In this document: positions 2,318 to 7,237 of the stretch, one piece after another
Layout: every line of letters starts with the position of its first letter
How positions within the stretch are numbered: the stretch's first letter is position 1
Notes under the pieces: generated by a model
The model's input: the letters and a program-made list of their open reading frames with translations, nothing else
Told to the model about the DNA's origin: nothing
The model's database searches: none
IMG/VR virus record: IMGVR_UViG_2690316028_000008
Reading direction: 5' to 3' (one strand)
Source: a virus
Taxonomy: Duplodnaviria > Heunggongvirae > Uroviricota > Caudoviricetes
DNA: 7,242 bases
Made by a program: the position numbers and the translations under genes

Positions 2318-2980
2318 TTAGTAAAGTTCTCCAGTTCCCTGATCTACACGTTTATAGAAATCAGAAAAATTACATGGGTCAGATATAACTGAGTTTTTAT
2401 CACTACGAAAATCAAATTCTATTTTTTTTATAAGATCAATGGCTGGTATAGTCGAATTTAAAGGGATTTTTTTATAGTTTCTAATTCTGTGATATTCAAT
2501 TGAGTCTAAGTCTACTTCAATCGCTTTATTACCAAAATAATAAAAATGATCTGAAATCAACACGTTATTAGAGCTAGTATCTCGTTCAAGATTTGTCATG
2601 TTAAATGAACCATCAGCATTGCTATGATGAGAATCTTCTTGTATCCATTCATTGTTTTCATTTTGATGGTAGATATTATCGCCCAGAATTTGTACATGAC
2701 TACCATTTCTAGCAGGCTTTTTGAGAGAGAACCTGGTATCCTCCCAATAACCATTGAAACTAATTTTTTCTGAAACTTTCATTAATAGGATACATTTTTT
2801 TTTAGCTGATTTTAAATTGGCTCCACCAACTCCGAGTATCCAATCACCCACTTTAGCTGACTTTCTAATTCCAGGTTTGCATGTTGCCAAGGTACAACTT
2901 CCATGAAATGGATTAGGTGCAAAACCAAAGTCTCTCGTTATTGCATAAACATAAAGGTGTGAGTTGGGATCAATTAGCAT
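2318..2980 (-). CDS. Hypothetical protein (220 aa), unknown function
   Basis: Uninterrupted 220-codon ORF, same strand as neighbours. ATG start overlaps the stop of the upstream gene (ATGCTAA). SD-like AAGGTGG about 9 nt upstream of the ATG. N-terminal region contains YAITRDFGFAPNPFHGSCTLATCKPG (Cys-x4-Cys); I do not recognise a family. Confidence 0.6.
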   Translation of the reverse strand: MLIDPNSHLYVYAITRDFGFAPNPFHGSCTLATCKPGIRKSAKVGDWILGVGGANLKSAKKKCILLMKVSEKISFNGYWEDTRFSLKKPARNGSHVQILGDNIYHQNENNEWIQEDSHHSNADGSFNMTNLERDTSSNNVLISDHFYYFGNKAIEVDLDSIEYHRIRNYKKIPLNSTIPAIDLIKKIEFDFRSDKNSVISDPCNFSDFYKRVDQGTGELY

Positions 2981-3465
2981 ACGACATTTCCACCTTGAAC
3001 TTTATCACGATCCGTACCATCAGGTTTTTCAAAGGAAGTTTTACCTTCTAGTGCGTTGATAATGGCATCACTTCTCCAGGCCACTATAGAGGTTGCATAC
3101 TTTTCGAGATTCTCTGGTAGTTTTACATCGCCTTTTAACCCATTTTCATATACACCTATGATTGGTTTTCCAAGTTGATGAGCTACTTGAATTTCCCAGT
3201 TTACCCAAGGTCTAGTATGTGTCTCTTTCCCGATAACAACTATAACTTGACTAGCCCACCTCATTTTCATTCTAAGTAAACGTGCAATCGTTCGGTCACT
3301 AAGTTTTTTTTCCTCAACTCGTCGCTGGTTTTCAGGTTTCATTCTAATAGAACTATTGCGTAAATGATAACCTTTTGCTGCAGCTAAACGAGAAACTCCA
3401 TCAACACTCGCGTCGTCTTTATGATGATGGCTAACAAAAACATTTTTCTTAATTTCTTTAACCAT
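2974..3465 (-). CDS. TIR-like domain protein (ThsB-like / DUF1863-type)
   Basis: 163-aa ORF with ATG start and AAGGA SD 7 nt upstream. N-terminal VFVSHHHKDD and central VVIGKETHTRPWVNWEIQVAHQLGKPIIGVYEN match the characteristic pattern of bacterial TIR-like (Thoeris ThsB-type) domains, including the conserved Glu in WVxxEI. Recognised by eye. Confidence 0.7.
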   Translation of the reverse strand: MVKEIKKNVFVSHHHKDDASVDGVSRLAAAKGYHLRNSSIRMKPENQRRVEEKKLSDRTIARLLRMKMRWASQVIVVIGKETHTRPWVNWEIQVAHQLGKPIIGVYENGLKGDVKLPENLEKYATSIVAWRSDAIINALEGKTSFEKPDGTDRDKVQGGNVVC

Positions 3466-3486: not shown

Positions 3487-4518
3487 CTAATTATAAAATA
3501 ATTCTATATTATTGCTTTGATAATGGTATTTTTGTTTAGGCCTTTTATTGTTAAATTTAGTTCGGCATCTTTTATCTATCTCGCATGCACCACTATTTTC
3601 CATGTCCATTAAGGTGTAAACTCTTTCTTCTTTAGGCAGGAAATGGAATATTTCATCCATGTTCCAATTTTCTCTATACTTTTCAGCGATGTTATTTTGG
3701 TTTATAGTGAACCAGAATAAACACTCTTCGCTATTCATTCCATCTCTATTAGAAAAAATCCAATTAATTCCTCTTTCACAACCAGGACCTGAAATAACAA
3801 AGTTCAATTCTGTAAACGGAAAGTTGGGTATGTATGTCAGATCTATGAAAATTTGATATGCTAGAAAATCCCCAATCCCTGAGAATGATTTTAAATGTTC
3901 AAAAACTTCGAACTGATTTCCTGATGATTTTACACCATTAACGATTTTATCTTGGTTATAATAAACAAATTTTATCATTCTAATTACCATATCATTTTCC
4001 GGTATTCCTTCTATATTTTTTAAGTATTTTCCGAAGTTAAACTTCGGACCTCCTAAAATATAGGCTGCACTAAAAAATACGTAGCCTGGTTTTTTTAATG
4101 ATATGTTTATTGTCTTTTCTCTGATCTTTTCATTGATGTCGCGAATAGTCATTTTTGTGAAATCAAAGGGCGCATCAAGTTCATTTAATGTATCGCTTTT
4201 ATTTATTACTCTAAACAAAAATGAATTGAGTATTTTATTTTCATAAGTTAATTTATTGTTGTTTGTTATATTTTTCAATAACCATTTGGTTTCTTTGTCC
4301 CATGTTCTTTTAGTATTTACAAATTTATAGTTTCTCAATATTTTGTCGTCTGTCCAATATGGCGGAAGGTTAAGTATCTCTTTCTTGTAATATATGGATG
4401 TCCTCTCTCGTTGATGATAAAACCATTCCTTGATAACAGCTTCATTCAAGGTAGGTTTAGCGGTTTTAATTTTCATTTCTCTGACATTACAAAAAAGTTG
4501 ATCGTTTTTACTGTTCAC
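3487..4518 (-). CDS. Hypothetical protein (343 aa), unknown function; contains a helix-hairpin-helix-like motif
   Basis: Long uninterrupted ORF co-directional with cluster. Start uncertain: GTG at 4518 overlaps the upstream gene by 11 nt; an alternative ATG at 4476 gives a 329-aa product. Motif FSGIGDFLAYQIFIDL resembles HhH nucleic-acid-binding hairpins. No P-loop. No family recognised with confidence. Confidence 0.6.
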   Translation of the reverse strand: MNSKNDQLFCNVREMKIKTAKPTLNEAVIKEWFYHQRERTSIYYKKEILNLPPYWTDDKILRNYKFVNTKRTWDKETKWLLKNITNNNKLTYENKILNSFLFRVINKSDTLNELDAPFDFTKMTIRDINEKIREKTINISLKKPGYVFFSAAYILGGPKFNFGKYLKNIEGIPENDMVIRMIKFVYYNQDKIVNGVKSSGNQFEVFEHLKSFSGIGDFLAYQIFIDLTYIPNFPFTELNFVISGPGCERGINWIFSNRDGMNSEECLFWFTINQNNIAEKYRENWNMDEIFHFLPKEERVYTLMDMENSGACEIDKRCRTKFNNKRPKQKYHYQSNNIELFYN

Positions 4519-5065
4519 TTAATAATACCTTTTCGAAGAAATGTTTAAAACTATCAATTCCGTTCACATTGTTGTCAAAATGATATTCTGATTTTGTTTT
4601 ATTCTCAGTGACATACTTGTCGATTTCGTATTTTTTATAATTATTATTTTCCCGTTCTATATGTACTATAGTGAACTGATTGTTCTTACACCATGCGAAT
4701 TCTTCATTTGATCTTATGTCAGTAATTATTATATTTTTATTCGTCCCTCCATTTTTTTCTAAAATTTTCAACTCTTCTGATAGCATTCTAATAAATATTT
4801 TTTCTTCAATTTTCCTTAGGCTGTCTAAGCTCAGCCATATATCTCTTGGTGAATGGCTGATAAAGTCGCCGGTAGGTAAGGTTATATTGAGTGGTAACAT
4901 TTTATTTTCAGGTGGGTAATCCTTTTCCATCCAAGGATAAATATAATTGGCCAATTTTTTGAGTTGATCGCTAAATGATAATCTAATAAATCCATAGTTG
5001 GATATCAGATAATTGGCAAGAAAGTCTTTTCCACTACCCGATATGCCCATGAATGCAATTTTCAT
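4508..5065 (-). CDS. P-loop nucleotide kinase, deoxynucleoside-monophosphate-kinase-like
   Basis: 185-aa ORF. N-terminus MKIAFMGISGSGKDFLANYL has a Walker A/P-loop at the extreme N-terminus, as in phage T4-type dNMP kinases (MKLIFLSGVKRSGKD...). ATG (5065..5063) overlaps the TGA stop of the upstream TS-like gene (ATGA), suggesting translational coupling. Confidence 0.7.
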   Translation of the reverse strand: MKIAFMGISGSGKDFLANYLISNYGFIRLSFSDQLKKLANYIYPWMEKDYPPENKMLPLNITLPTGDFISHSPRDIWLSLDSLRKIEEKIFIRMLSEELKILEKNGGTNKNIIITDIRSNEEFAWCKNNQFTIVHIERENNNYKKYEIDKYVTENKTKSEYHFDNNVNGIDSFKHFFEKVLLSEQ

Positions 5066-6147
5066 AGACGGTCCTTATTAGAATTATTAAAATAATTAGA
5101 AGTTACGCTTAGATTGAAATCATTGCTTAACTTAGTTTTTAACACTATTGGTTGATTGAATCTTTCCTGGAAAATATATGATAGAGCTGCTTCTGCATAT
5201 CCCCAAAGTAAATTCCTTTCAGTTTCTACAAAGTGTTTAATAAATATTTTTTTTAGATTTTCGGTTTCCATATCTATTGTGTCTATTTTATGTTCATTTT
5301 CTGTTATTATTCTTTCAAGGAATGAAACTATATCACAGAATAATGATTTTATATTTTGTAACGATGGAGGGAATGATATTTCATCATCGTTTATCAAATC
5401 TGTCATTTGTTCTTCTTTTCTTTCGTATATTTCATTGGCTTGTCCTACTCTATCATCATATATATGAAGATTTGTTACTGATTGATGTAAGTATCCCAGT
5501 TTAATCTCGCTATCAACTTCCCTCTGTAATATTGAAAGTACTATCTCTTGAAGTAAACTAAACTCGAAAAGATTTATATTGCTCACTCCAAATATTAGAT
5601 CGCCGCTTCTTTGAACTATTTTAATGTTTAAATTTTTGTCAGGAGTGATAAAGAAATGAATTAAGTTATTACAAGGAATATCGACACTATGTTCTATGTT
5701 GTATACTTTTATGAGGCTTTCATTCGTATCTCTGTCAGGCATGTATAAGCTAATGACTGCTCTTCTTGTAAATATTCCTTCTTTTTTGAATTGTTGCACG
5801 ACATTCTCAAGTTGCCCGTGAGCGTATAGTCTTTCCCCATAAGCTGCTCGCCAAATGACACCATCATCTGAGTATTTAGGCGCTCTTGGTAAAAAAAAAT
5901 TTAGATATGGTTTAATTCTGTTGTCGCCAGCAAAAACCCATATAGCTTCAGCAAATGTGGAAAATATATTATTTTTTCGACCCGCTAAACTTAAATGCCT
6001 TGATCTAGGGTTTCGTAAGATCATACTAACATCATAAATAGTTATAGCATCCCCATTCCTTGTCGAAATACGAACTCCTTCATTAAGCACTTTTTCTAGG
6101 AGTTTCATTATTACATCGTTAATAGTTTCTCCGTAAATGACGTGCAT
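5062..6147 (-). CDS. Thymidylate synthase superfamily enzyme (ThyA-like; possibly a dNMP C5-methylase or hydroxymethylase) with C-terminal extension
   Basis: Motif-by-motif correspondence with E. coli ThyA: KVLNEG (KVLDEG), EAIWVFAGDN (ELLWFLQGDT), TRRAVISLY (SRRIIVSAW), DIPCNN (APCH, catalytic Cys; codon at 5673..5671), QRSGDLIFGVSNINLFEFSLL ([20 protein letters not shown]), HIY (HLY). About 115 extra C-terminal residues with no TS counterpart. ATG at 6147 preferred over the upstream in-frame TTG at 6153 because SD GAGG lies 8 nt before the ATG. Confidence 0.8.
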   Translation of the reverse strand: MHVIYGETINDVIMKLLEKVLNEGVRISTRNGDAITIYDVSMILRNPRSRHLSLAGRKNNIFSTFAEAIWVFAGDNRIKPYLNFFLPRAPKYSDDGVIWRAAYGERLYAHGQLENVVQQFKKEGIFTRRAVISLYMPDRDTNESLIKVYNIEHSVDIPCNNLIHFFITPDKNLNIKIVQRSGDLIFGVSNINLFEFSLLQEIVLSILQREVDSEIKLGYLHQSVTNLHIYDDRVGQANEIYERKEEQMTDLINDDEISFPPSLQNIKSLFCDIVSFLERIITENEHKIDTIDMETENLKKIFIKHFVETERNLLWGYAEAALSYIFQERFNQPIVLKTKLSNDFNLSVTSNYFNNSNKDRL

Positions 6148-7057
6148 AAACAAAACCTCATGCTATAAAAACATCTTTTTAGTTGATATAGTTTATTGGG
6201 CCTAATCCAGAATTTGGTCCAGCTATGATCTGGACTAACCGGATAGCACGTTTCAATCTCTTGCCTCTAAGAACAGGCTCGAACGTGATAGCCAATTGGC
6301 TTCCCACTTAGCAAGTGAGACCTCGACCCACGCTACCGCCCTCAGTTGCATAGGCACTGCGTTTGTATGAACATTTACAAATGTTACTCATGTTATGGGT
6401 TTGGTCAATCTGGCAATAAGATAATTACGAAACTTTAGACTTATTACTTAAGTGGAGGTGGCGCGAGTCGCTAGCGAGTAAGACTGTCTCTTATATGTAC
6501 CAGAAGCACAACTGACGATGCTCCAAAATCATAGTCACCGCTGCGTAGCAAGCTGTGGCCTCTCGCTACTCCCGGGTGCCCCAGTTACAACGTTGTGGGT
6601 TGCATAAGAAATCTGTCCCGCCGGATTAGAGTGGTGGTGGATTACTGACTGTACTCTGCGTTCAATACAGAGACAGCCCGGAACAGGCAGTAATTGATGC
6701 CGGAACGAGACTATTTAAGAACAAACCGCCCCCGGTTAGCAGGATCGTCTCGGCCGGCAGGAAAGCATGCTAACACCTACATGAAGTCCCTGTCAGTGCA
6801 GGCCCCAGACTCAACACCACCAATCTACTTTTCACCACTGCGAAGTAAGGGGCGCTACGCCCGGTTATGCAGGGGCAGTTTTTCTCCTGTGCGCTTTTCG
6901 TTCCTCTATCGGCTTCCTGTTAATCGTTTCCCAACACAACCCGTCCCGCAAGGGTAAATGGCACGCATGCTGCGCCCTTGCAGGACAGAACGATGTCGGG
7001 AAAGCGAACCGTCAGGCGATACGAAGACGAAAATCACACACTGACGGAGAAAAAACG

Positions 7058-7237
7058 ATGACGATTTCCCTGCATACCACCCGGACAAGCGCCCCTAACA
7101 CCGCAGCGGCGACCAGCGTATCCCCGCTGGACCCGTCAGGCTCCTCAAAAACGAAATTTTCTAAAACCAGAACCGACATTTACCGTAAGCGTCGTCTGAG
7201 TACCGTCTGGTCCCGAATCCAGGATCCTGTAACTTAA
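7058..7237 (+). CDS. Hypothetical small protein (59 aa), Ser/Thr/Pro/Arg-rich
   Basis: ATG at 7058 preceded by GGAGA about 8 nt upstream; ORF runs to TAA at 7235-7237 (MTISLHTTRTSAPNTAAATSVSPLDPSGSSKTKFSKTRTDIYRKRRLSTVWSRIQDPVT). Just below the 60-aa ORF-track cutoff. No family recognised; could be a remnant. Confidence 0.3.
   Translation: MTISLHTTRTSAPNTAAATSVSPLDPSGSSKTKFSKTRTDIYRKRRLSTVWSRIQDPVT

Follow-up and report, generated by a model that had tools for sequence, protein, structure and literature searches.

A predicted phage-lineage dUMP 5-hydroxymethylase in a DS-4-type operon of Escherichia coli

The stretch of DNA analysed here (7,242 nucleotides, IMG/VR virus record IMGVR_UViG_2690316028_000008; hereafter, the window) carries a five-gene operon whose first gene, at positions 5062–6147 on the minus strand, encodes a protein of the thymidylate synthase (TS) superfamily. 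Based on its closest relatives, its active-site residues and its gene neighbourhood, this TS-like protein is probably a folate-dependent dUMP 5-hydroxymethylase of phage lineage and not a thymidylate synthase, encoded in an operon orthologous to the defence system DS-4 (we put the probability of this reading at about 0.72). The first-pass annotation, made from the sequence alone, had described the gene as TS-like and had proposed that it may make a modified pyrimidine nucleotide, overlooking that it belongs to a five-gene operon with a published, experimentally validated orthologue.

Family placement and fold of the TS-like protein

The open reading frame (ORF) encodes 361 amino acids plus a stop codon and runs from an ATG at 6147–6145 to a stop at 5064–5062. 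Both the ORF and the intact TS active site described in the first-pass annotation were recovered with all of the quoted motifs, namely STRNGD (R30), TRRAV (R128, R129), DIPCNN (C159, N160), QRSGD (R180, S181, G182, D183) and GVSNINLFEF (N192). The features of the gene are as follows.

5062–6147, minus strand: TS-superfamily gene, predicted dUMP 5-hydroxymethylase, orthologue of DS-4A (ORF and translation, PF00303, PHROG 3676)
6156–6159, minus strand: GAGG, Shine-Dalgarno-like, 8 nt upstream of the ATG at 6147 (direct sequence reading)
5398–6147, minus strand: catalytic TS-fold core, residues 1–250 (Pfam match over residues 15–252, AlphaFold2 model, Foldseek)
5065–5397, minus strand: C-terminal helical domain, residues 251–361 (AlphaFold2 model, MilA superposition, family conservation)
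5671–5673, minus strand: codon of Cys159, catalytic nucleophile in DIPCNN (alignment; invariant in the family)
5680–5682, minus strand: codon of Asp156, proposed water-activating residue (alignment; invariant in the family)
5572–5574, minus strand: codon of Asn192, base-specificity residue equivalent to E. coli N177 (alignments)

RefSeq names the protein 'thymidylate synthase', and its start calls for the gene disagree (348 aa in locus L001, 17006–18052; 361 aa in locus L002, 10759–11844). The 348-aa call cuts off the conserved first beta-strand. We prefer the 361-aa start because the first ten residues, MHV(I/V)YGETIN, are kept among the homologues.

Membership of the TS superfamily was evident from both sequence and structure. 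The Pfam model Thymidylat_synt (PF00303) matched residues 15–252 with 61 bits (cut-off 24.3, E = 1.3e-16), which is far beyond chance, and an AlphaFold2 model built on 32 homologues (mean pLDDT 94.5, pTM 0.93) matched the structures of MilA, a CMP 5-hydroxymethylase, and of ThyA with a probability of 1.00. The six NCBIfam ThyA equivalog models gave 36–50 bits, compared to cut-offs of 108–405. A match to PHROG 3676 was found (E = 7e-78), and BLASTP scores were highest for phage enzymes (244 bits for Aeromonas phage TSW001, 172 for PhiW-14 gp231, 142 for ViI, and 88.6 for SPO1 gp29), followed by a MilA fragment (79 bits), E. coli ThyA (48 bits), and T4 gp42, a dCMP hydroxymethylase (41.6 bits). 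The closest relatives are thus the dUMP 5-hydroxymethylases of the SPO1 gp29 type (88–244 bits vs 48 for ThyA). A tblastn search of 50,697 phage records returned 527 matches, mostly from hosts or lineages of phages known to use 5-hydroxymethyldeoxyuridine (5hmdU). The best of these were in Vibrio and Aeromonas phages (39% identity), and others included PhiW-14 (34.5%, 1e-45), ViI (29.8%, 4e-35), M6 (2e-19), and SPO1 gp29 (5e-17), the record of which bears the note 'dUMP hydroxymethylase'.

Among solved structures, MilA was the top match in a phmmer search of PDB sequences (2e-14; ThyA 1e-6 or weaker, T4 dCMP hydroxymethylase 1e-4), and Foldseek aligned the AlphaFold2 model to MilA with a TM-score of 0.75 over 358 columns, C-terminal domain included, compared to ~0.53 over ~261 columns for E. 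coli ThyA. The first-pass annotation had proposed an alignment and phylogeny against ThyA, T4 dCMP hydroxymethylase and the dUMP hydroxymethylases as a check; in the neighbour-joining tree, the protein grouped with the phage dUMP hydroxymethylases and MilA, apart from ThyA and the T4 enzyme.

Four departures from ThyA had been singled out as unusual: Asn in place of His next to the catalytic Cys (P-C-N), QRSGD, an insertion in the specificity loop, and the long C-terminus. All four are present, although none is unusual within the lineage. P-C-N is common to the SPO1, PhiW-14 and TSW001 homologues, QRSGD to those of PhiW-14 and TSW001, and the longer loop also occurs in phage homologues (L-INS-i alignment), while a HMMER alignment to solved ThyA confirmed that the insertion is a single residue and placed N192 opposite E. 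coli N177. The post-core tail is also long in SPO1 gp29 (383 aa), PhiW-14 (357 aa), ViI (346 aa), and TSW001 (377 aa), and the additional domain is found in MilA as well. These features therefore read as hallmarks of the phage dUMP-hydroxymethylase lineage in our alignments, with no novelty attached to them.

The C-terminal extension is conserved in homologues down to ~30% identity. The number of residues after the His-x-Tyr motif (Y230) is 131 in this protein, compared to 55 in E. coli ThyA and 28 in T4 dCMP hydroxymethylase, and it is at least 93 in nearly every intact family member (57 bacterial loci). In the AlphaFold2 model, residues 263–349 form four helices packed on the core (263–282, 291–304, 313–330, and 342–349), with block pLDDT values of 89–98 over residues 251–350 that fall to 72 and 42 across the last 11 residues. 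A mis-joined separate ORF, which the first-pass annotation had named as a possible refutation, is ruled out by the conservation among homologues and by the confidently predicted four-helix fold. The 358-column alignment to MilA (PDB 5jnh) covers the extra all-helical domain of that enzyme, which consists of helices alpha9–alpha13 located away from the active site and without which truncated MilA is insoluble (PMC5175136). By analogy to MilA, the four-helix domain is likely to be structural and distant from the active site.

Some family members, with proteins of 513–585 aa, contain a further C-terminal region of ~200 aa with the conserved motif YG-x2-WK-x-RG...I-x-RK-x-x-RL...D-x-x-x-DL-x-x-Y (loci L032, L035, L037, L038, L046, L051, L062, L064, L069, L070, L073, and L074). 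A Pfam scan of these ~200-aa fusions yielded zero matches; the region may be a MazG-like or Nmad1-like all-helical nucleotide-binding domain.

Active-site residues and predicted chemistry

The nucleophile Cys159 aligns with E. coli C146, T4 dCMP hydroxymethylase C148, and MilA C155, and is invariant in the family; likewise, R30, R128, R129, R180, E67, Y103, H228, and Y230 are invariant or nearly so. Three residues before the Cys (D156-I-P-C159) lies Asp156, also invariant, which aligns with D145 of the T4 enzyme and Leu143 of E. coli ThyA. An Asp occupies this position in SPO1, PhiW-14, ViI, T4 dCMP hydroxymethylase, and MilA, whereas ThyA has Leu. In the ternary complex of T4 dCMP hydroxymethylase, Asp145 has been identified as the residue that activates the substrate water (PMC6400193).

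Two published rules bear on the substrate. The base is read by Asn in uracil enzymes and by Asp in cytosine enzymes such as T4 dCMP hydroxymethylase (D179) and MilA (D186) (PMC5175136, PMC6400193). The sugar is read by Arg plus Ser in deoxy enzymes and by Lys133 plus Ala176 in the ribo enzymes MilA and BcmA, and the double mutation A176S/K133R reverses the sugar preference of MilA (PMC5175136). The window protein carries the uracil-type Asn (N192, invariant in the family) and the deoxyribose-type pair (R128 and S181, invariant in the DS-4-type clade), compared to D186, K133 and A176 in the CMP hydroxymethylase. On these residues we predict dUMP and not dCMP as the substrate, with N192 for uracil and R128 plus S181 for deoxyribose. 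Taken together, the base, sugar and Asp156 rules lead to the predicted reaction dUMP + CH2-THF + H2O → 5-hydroxymethyl-dUMP + THF (CH2-THF, methylene-tetrahydrofolate; THF, tetrahydrofolate), with no dTMP formed. The earlier proposal of a modified pyrimidine nucleotide instead of dTMP is hence supported by the residue pattern; of the two substrates that it had named, dUMP and dCMP, the specificity-loop residue that it had recommended for inspection (N192, an Asn as in E. coli N177) favours the former.

The sugar rule gains independent support because it covaries with gene context. Among the 57 bacterial loci, the Lys/Ala pair is encoded by all six TS-like genes that directly follow a gene of the nucleoside-2-deoxyribosyltransferase (NDT) family, and Arg/Ser is found in those linked to kinase, HMUDK_hel, TIR/Nmad2 or MazG_C/UDG-like genes (UDG, uracil-DNA glycosylase). 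The six proteins that combine Asn with Lys/Ala beside NDT genes (loci L036, L039, L044, L048, L058, and L061) come from Actinomycetes, Glycomyces, Lachnospiraceae, Clostridia, Bacillota, and Rhizobium rhizogenes. Their residues and context predict UMP 5-hydroxymethylases with an N-glycosidase partner, i.e., a uracil analogue of the MilA/MilB pair, which would release free 5-hydroxymethyluracil.

That the protein is a true, if divergent, thymidylate synthase producing dTMP, for example an island-borne second ThyA boosting or protecting the dTTP supply, is highly improbable. Such an enzyme would account for the TS fold, the retention of all nucleotide-binding residues, the uracil-specific Asn and the RefSeq name; however, the protein falls short of every ThyA equivalog cut-off, it is most closely related to dUMP and CMP hydroxymethylases, and thyA is present in every one of the 5,426 complete E. 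coli genomes. Moreover, the hydrophobic, sealed folate site of ThyA is lost in several places: Asp156 stands for Leu143, the W80/W83 segment is replaced by PRAPKYSDD, and the cofactor-closing C-terminal tail is replaced by the ~110-aa helical domain. Asn also takes the place of His147.

Another substrate or chemistry, such as hydroxymethylation of dCMP, CMP or UMP, flavin-dependent 5-hydroxylation, or methylation of another pyrimidine nucleotide, has precedents in the superfamily, with MilA acting on CMP and RB69 gp48 being a flavin-bound 5-hydroxy-dCMP synthase. Among solved structures, the closest match to the window protein is itself a CMP enzyme, and the NDT-adjacent siblings carry the ribo-type Lys/Ala pair. 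Nevertheless, we consider this unlikely: the DS-4-type clade has an invariant Asn192 rather than Asp and R128/S181 rather than Lys/Ala, the flavin enzymes resemble T4 gp42 (to which the window protein scores 41.6 bits), and the adjacent dNMP kinase and the 5-hydroxymethyluracil (5hmU)-associated HMUDK_hel protein fit a 5hmdU nucleotide.

The DS-4-type operon, its setting and related loci

The hydroxymethylase gene is followed on the same strand by genes for a dNMP kinase, an HMUDK_hel protein, a ThsB-type TIR protein and Nmad2, which are overlapping or tightly spaced and form a translationally coupled operon with it. The start of the kinase gene overlaps the stop of the hydroxymethylase gene by 4 nt (ATGA), and the Nmad2 gene overlaps the TIR gene by 7 nt. 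The four partner genes are listed below.

4508–5065, minus strand: dNMP kinase, 185 aa, DS-4B orthologue (PF21448 DNMK, E = 2.8e-10; PHROG 139, E = 3e-30)
3487–4518, minus strand: HMUDK_hel / clade-1 aGPT-Pplase homologue, 343 aa, DS-4C orthologue (PF18723, E = 4e-53)
2974–3465, minus strand: ThsB-type TIR protein, 163 aa, DS-4D orthologue (PF08937, E = 4e-20; PADLOC ThsB, E = 4e-73)
2318–2980, minus strand: Nmad2, 220 aa, DS-4E orthologue (PF18753, E = 3e-64; PUA-like fold)

DS-4 (working name NTTI) was discovered with DefensePredictor (DeWeirdt, Mahoney and Laub, Science 2026; PMC13092281; preprint January 2025), in a study that tested 94 predicted E. coli transcription units as clones in MG1655, of which 42 were validated. 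For DS-4, the paper names the domains TS, dNMPk, 5hmdUk, TIR, and NMAD, and it counts thymidylate synthase and 5-hydroxymethyluracil kinase among those whose part in defence was newly validated (PMC13092281). DS-4 was cloned alone in MG1655 and its effect on lambda was replicated; the paper contains neither DS-4 mutants nor a mechanism (PMC13092281), and a literature search for mechanistic follow-up on DS-4 found none. The window proteins are 78, 72, 77, 93, and 81% identical to DS-4A–E, respectively, essentially over the full length of each, and the order TS, dNMP kinase, HMUDK_hel, TIR, and Nmad2 on one strand is that of DS-4 (Tables S6 and S8). The Nmad2 accession of the window allele, WP_023143489.1, is listed in Table S5 of the same paper. 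Based on these comparisons, the window operon is almost certainly of the DS-4 type. PADLOC lacks models for four of the five proteins (TS, kinase, HMUDK_hel and Nmad2).

The kinase is 30% identical to ViI dnk (BLASTP E = 9e-22) and shows no significant match to the ViI 5-hmdU DNA kinase. We also considered the kinase as the P-loop half of a split 5-hmdU DNA kinase and rejected this as the primary reading, given the matches to ViI dnk and to the PHROG dNMP kinase. A joint function of the kinase and HMUDK_hel is still conceivable because fusions of the two are found in other phyla. In these, a thymidylate-kinase-like P-loop domain is fused to HMUDK_hel (~585 aa) next to a TS-like gene, as in Anaerolineaceae (L003/L004, 10811–12568) and many Actinobacteria (L041–L067). 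By the Rosetta-stone argument, such fusions suggest that kinase and HMUDK_hel, which are separate proteins in the window, work as a pair there.

Homologues of HMUDK_hel with ~30% identity occur in ViI-like, Vibrio and M6-like phages, and one in a Bacillus phage is annotated 'aGPT-pyrophosphorylase clade 1'. The conserved E307...C312 pair of the window protein, located in MENSGACE (residues 304–315), aligns with the METCYC region of the clade-2 ADDT. To attack C6 of 5-phosphomethyl-dU in DNA, clade-2 aGPT-Pplases require a conserved Cys together with a Glu close by; the clade-1 paralogue was dispensable in phage in vitro reconstitutions. Judging from the conserved pair, HMUDK_hel may be catalytically active on a 5-substituted uracil and not a passive helical kinase partner. 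A second Cys-Glu pair, in GPGCERG, was rejected as catalytic because only GPG is conserved.

The TIR protein retains the conserved catalytic-type Glu (Glu91, in RPWVNWEI), as aligned to the ThsB structures 6lhy and 9b7d. In Nmad2, H118 and H119 are invariant. PDB sequence searches with Nmad2 and HMUDK_hel gave zero matches, and a literature search on Nmad2 returned unrelated papers only; the aGPT-Pplase and Nmad domains were reportedly defined by Iyer et al. in 2013 (NAR). A hydroxymethylase gene followed by a dNMP kinase gene, and then by a dUTPase gene, is also found in ViI and PhiW-14. Because of this shared adjacency and the phage homologues of HMUDK_hel, genes 1, 2 and 3 of the operon look phage-derived.

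The first-pass annotation had placed the gene on a horizontally acquired island beside a kinase and had argued against a housekeeping role, and the genomic setting bears out both points. The operon has a GC content of 32%, compared to 52% in the right flank, and lies on a chromosomal integrative and conjugative element (ICE) with a VirB type IV secretion system, MobC and ArdC, where its neighbours include a TIR-rich cluster and an OLD/AriA-like ATPase. The TS-like gene and operon were found in 16 of the 5,426 complete E. coli genomes; thyA is encoded in every genome of this set, carriers included. A megablast search of the operon against plasmids gave zero matches. In one of the 16 carriers, E. 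coli MS20675 (NZ_CP082056.1, 2344459–2346321), the TS-like match is in two pieces with an IS1A transposase beneath, and the gene is probably inactivated.

Several features of the surrounding DNA were also recorded. Downstream of the operon, an OLD/AriA/GajA-like AAA ATPase gene lies at 190–1920 on the minus strand (PF13175, 8e-46; PADLOC AriA, 1.6e-37). RefSeq gives a protein of 576 aa extending to position 1920, where the start is not ATG, GTG or TTG; the first canonical start is a GTG at 1788, and the Walker A motif (GRNDVGKTT) lies ~10 residues from the N-terminus. Because of the non-canonical start and the position of Walker A, the N-terminus may be truncated or mis-called. On the other side, ~900 bp without an annotated gene (6148–7057) separate the operon from ardC (start 7058, plus strand), and the GC content climbs from 36% to ~54% through this interval. 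An imperfect 34-nt inverted repeat (6832–6865 / 7079–7112, 74% complementary) and a 27-nt direct repeat (7006–7032 / 7130–7156) are present here. Scans of the whole window, including 6148–7057, for tRNAs and Rfam families yielded zero hits, and a promoter and terminator scan gave counts at shuffle level. A separate five-gene cluster in the same ICE cargo, upstream of the window in strain PCP06238 (L001, 7986–11889) and also seen in L002 (2489–6392), encodes a DUF6650 protein, three TIR-domain proteins and one hypothetical protein; the DefensePredictor paper counts DUF6650 among the domains that it newly links to defence (PMC13092281).

In a scan of 100,044 species-representative genomes, all five genes were present in each of the 10 gammaproteobacterial loci of sufficient length. 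These belong to Atlantibacter, Erwinia, Brenneria, Buttiauxella, Photobacterium, Colwellia, Aeromonas, and Agarivorans, the last with two divergent units (TS-kinase-HMUDK_hel and TIR-Nmad2(-TIR-SLOG)). Nmad2 is far more widespread, with 7,082 homologues at E ≤ 1e-5 that are ~65% identical across phyla, and the TIR-Nmad2 pair keeps its 7-nt overlap elsewhere (Thiocapsa, Cellvibrio and metagenomes; L017–L020, genes 5519–6666 and downstream). In such loci, the pair is followed by a second ThsB TIR, a TIR-SLOG protein (LD_cluster2), MazG_C and a UDG-like protein, and it often lies beside type I restriction-modification systems and ArdA. At 29–40% identity, more distant TS-like genes (from Actinobacteria, Rhizobiales and other groups) are accompanied by a kinase-HMUDK_hel fusion, and in part of these loci also by TIR, TIR-Nmad2-TIR-SLOG, or MazG_C plus a UDG-like protein. 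The recurring pattern across these loci is a nucleotide kinase and a protein with a predicted DNA-glycosylase fold attached to TIR and Nmad2.

These loci also bear on a different mode of action, in which the hydroxymethylase drains or reroutes nucleotide pools by diverting dUMP and CH2-THF from ThyA, so that dTTP starvation or a triggered effector impairs the phage; here, the TIR protein would act as an N-glycosidase (like MilB or DNPH1) on the modified nucleotide, or would turn the nucleotide or base into a signal. In its favour, TS-like genes of the clade lie elsewhere beside NDT-family (MilB family) genes at the place where DS-4 loci have TIR, the TIR protein retains the catalytic-type Glu, and related TIR-Nmad2 loci carry a TIR-SLOG protein resembling a signal receptor. 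However, the NDT-linked enzymes have the ribo signature without a kinase and seem to belong to another pathway, a Pfam scan of the operon proteins found neither SLOG nor any other receptor, and the dNMP kinase, HMUDK_hel and Nmad2 would be left unexplained. We therefore give pool draining a minor, though not negligible, chance.

Proposed mechanism and comparison with known systems

The chemistry of the hydroxymethylase can be laid out by homology with ThyA, T4 dCMP hydroxymethylase and MilA, and from it we infer the substrate, the product and all downstream steps. With the phosphate held by R30, R128', R129', R180, and S181 and the uracil read by N192, Cys159 would add to C6 of dUMP. The methylene of 5,10-CH2-THF would then move to C5, aided by E67 and Y103, and elimination of THF would leave an exocyclic methylene. 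To this methylene, water activated by Asp156 would add instead of hydride from THF, giving 5-hydroxymethyl-dUMP (5hmdUMP) and THF. The adjacent T4-gp1/ViI-dnk-like kinase would make 5hmdUDP, and host Ndk would then form 5hmdUTP. That the enzyme turns dUMP into 5hmdUMP and the kinase carries the product towards 5hmdUTP is, on this sequence evidence, probable. In the subsequent steps, 5hmdU in replicating DNA would be bound or processed by the clade-1 aGPT-Pplase, which resembles a helix-hairpin-helix glycosylase, and read by the PUA-like Nmad2, with the ThsB-type TIR as effector or signal generator, and phage replication would be impaired. This later part, the incorporation of 5hmdU into replicating DNA and its engagement by HMUDK_hel, Nmad2 and TIR, is offered tentatively and may well be wrong.

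Several observations weigh against the proposal as a whole. The activity of both the window protein and DS-4A is a prediction by homology, and TS-superfamily chemistry is not assured from homology, since T4-gp42-like homologues proved to be flavin-bound 5-hydroxy-dCMP synthases (RB69 gp48). The Ser94-x-Tyr96 element of the T4 enzyme is replaced by A101-A102-Y103 (family consensus G/A-A-Y); Ser-x-Tyr is part of a hydroxymethylation signature defined on dCMP enzymes only (PMC6400193). In a Pfam scan, no operon protein matched the P-loop 5-hmdU DNA kinase (PF18748) or the clade-2 transferase (PF18724), and the role of HMUDK_hel is hard to place because these hypermodification enzymes are missing. 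Constitutive 5hmdUTP would modify host DNA as well, and the model explains no self-protection. Finally, the DS-4 phenotype is weak, with a Table S7 row that lists lambda only, smaller plaques and a -log efficiency of plating of 0.93 (PMC13092281), and the model gives no reason why lambda alone was affected in the published panel.

A weak defence phenotype would also fit a DNA-hypermodification cassette that acts on ICE or host thymidines, evades restriction after conjugative transfer and is not primarily immune. Of the five genes, three are of the kind that phages use for thymidine modification, RefSeq names the DS-4C orthologue 'putative DNA base hypermodification protein', and the ICE location places the operon next to the anti-restriction gene ardC. 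However, DS-4 alone in MG1655 reproducibly lowered lambda plaquing, the TIR-Nmad2 pair is widespread beside restriction-modification, TIR-SLOG, MazG_C and UDG-like partners typical of conflict systems, and the neighbours of the operon are other defence genes (TIR cluster, OLD/AriA-like ATPase). Since the 5-hmdU DNA kinase and clade-2 transferase of known hypermodifications are also missing, we find this alternative quite unlikely.

Bacteria may have captured a phage 5hmdU-nucleotide module as a weapon, marking phage DNA with 5hmU in a 'write-then-read' form of immunity with TIR as the executor; this is speculative and, in our judgement, doubtful. Under such a scheme, TIR-Nmad2 would be a general core accepting interchangeable uracil-centred modules, which would be either TS plus kinase plus HMUDK_hel or MazG_C plus the UDG-like protein.

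Both the DS-4 system and the enzyme family, which comprises the phage dUMP hydroxymethylases and MilA, are already known, and public annotation names most of the parts. The interest that remains lies in how DS-4 and the widespread TIR-Nmad2 core work, and in an immune operon that would make a phage-style non-canonical nucleotide. The analysis provides handles for both, including the predicted conversion of dUMP to 5hmdUMP, residues C159, D156, and N192, the PUA-like reader fold of Nmad2, the Cys/Glu motif of the clade-1 aGPT-Pplase, and the ribo/deoxy signature that splits DS-4-type enzymes from the NDT-linked, MilA/MilB-like uracil enzymes.

Compared to known systems, the window operon is closest to DS-4, with which it shares five genes, their order and an E. 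coli origin; the window allele differs (~78% identical) from the one that was cloned, and phage resistance is known from the DS-4 allele alone. Thoeris has in common with it a ThsB-family TIR with the conserved Glu (window gene 4). However, the TIR of the window is invariably paired with Nmad2, and no ThsA-type effector (SIR2-SLOG or Macro-TM) accompanies it: scans of six window proteins found no SIR2, SLOG or Macro effector. From the phage thymidine hypermodification pathway (Lee et al. 2018, 2021), the operon has only the clade-1 paralogue (PF18723).

At the level of the enzyme, T4 gp42 has equivalents of the window residues in Asp145 and Cys148 and shares the open active-site logic for water addition, whereas it reads cytosine through Asp179, has 246 aa without the C-terminal domain and is a weak match (41.6 bits). 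E. coli ThyA shares the fold, the Cys nucleophile, the phosphate-binding arginines, and E58, Y94, N177, H207, and Y209, but is 22% identical and differs at L143 (Asp here), H147 (Asn), and C168 (Gly), as well as in the W80/W83 segment and closing tail, both absent here. MilA (PDB 5jnh, 5b6d), the CMP 5-hydroxymethylase of mildiomycin biosynthesis, where the NDT-family glycosidase MilB is its partner in making the antibiotic, is the closest match among solved structures, C-terminal domain included, and shares the Asp three residues before the Cys; it differs by D186 and K133/A176 from N192 and R128/S181. The phage dUMP hydroxymethylases (SPO1 gp29, PhiW-14 gp231, ViI/Vi01_060c, and M6) are 30–39% identical, and no dUTPase, dTMPase or phage DNA polymerase accompanies the window gene, which is instead ICE-encoded and linked to TIR and Nmad2. 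Nevertheless, they share with the window protein the D-x-x-C-N motif, the Asn, the Arg/Ser pair, the one-residue-longer loop and the long C-terminal extension.

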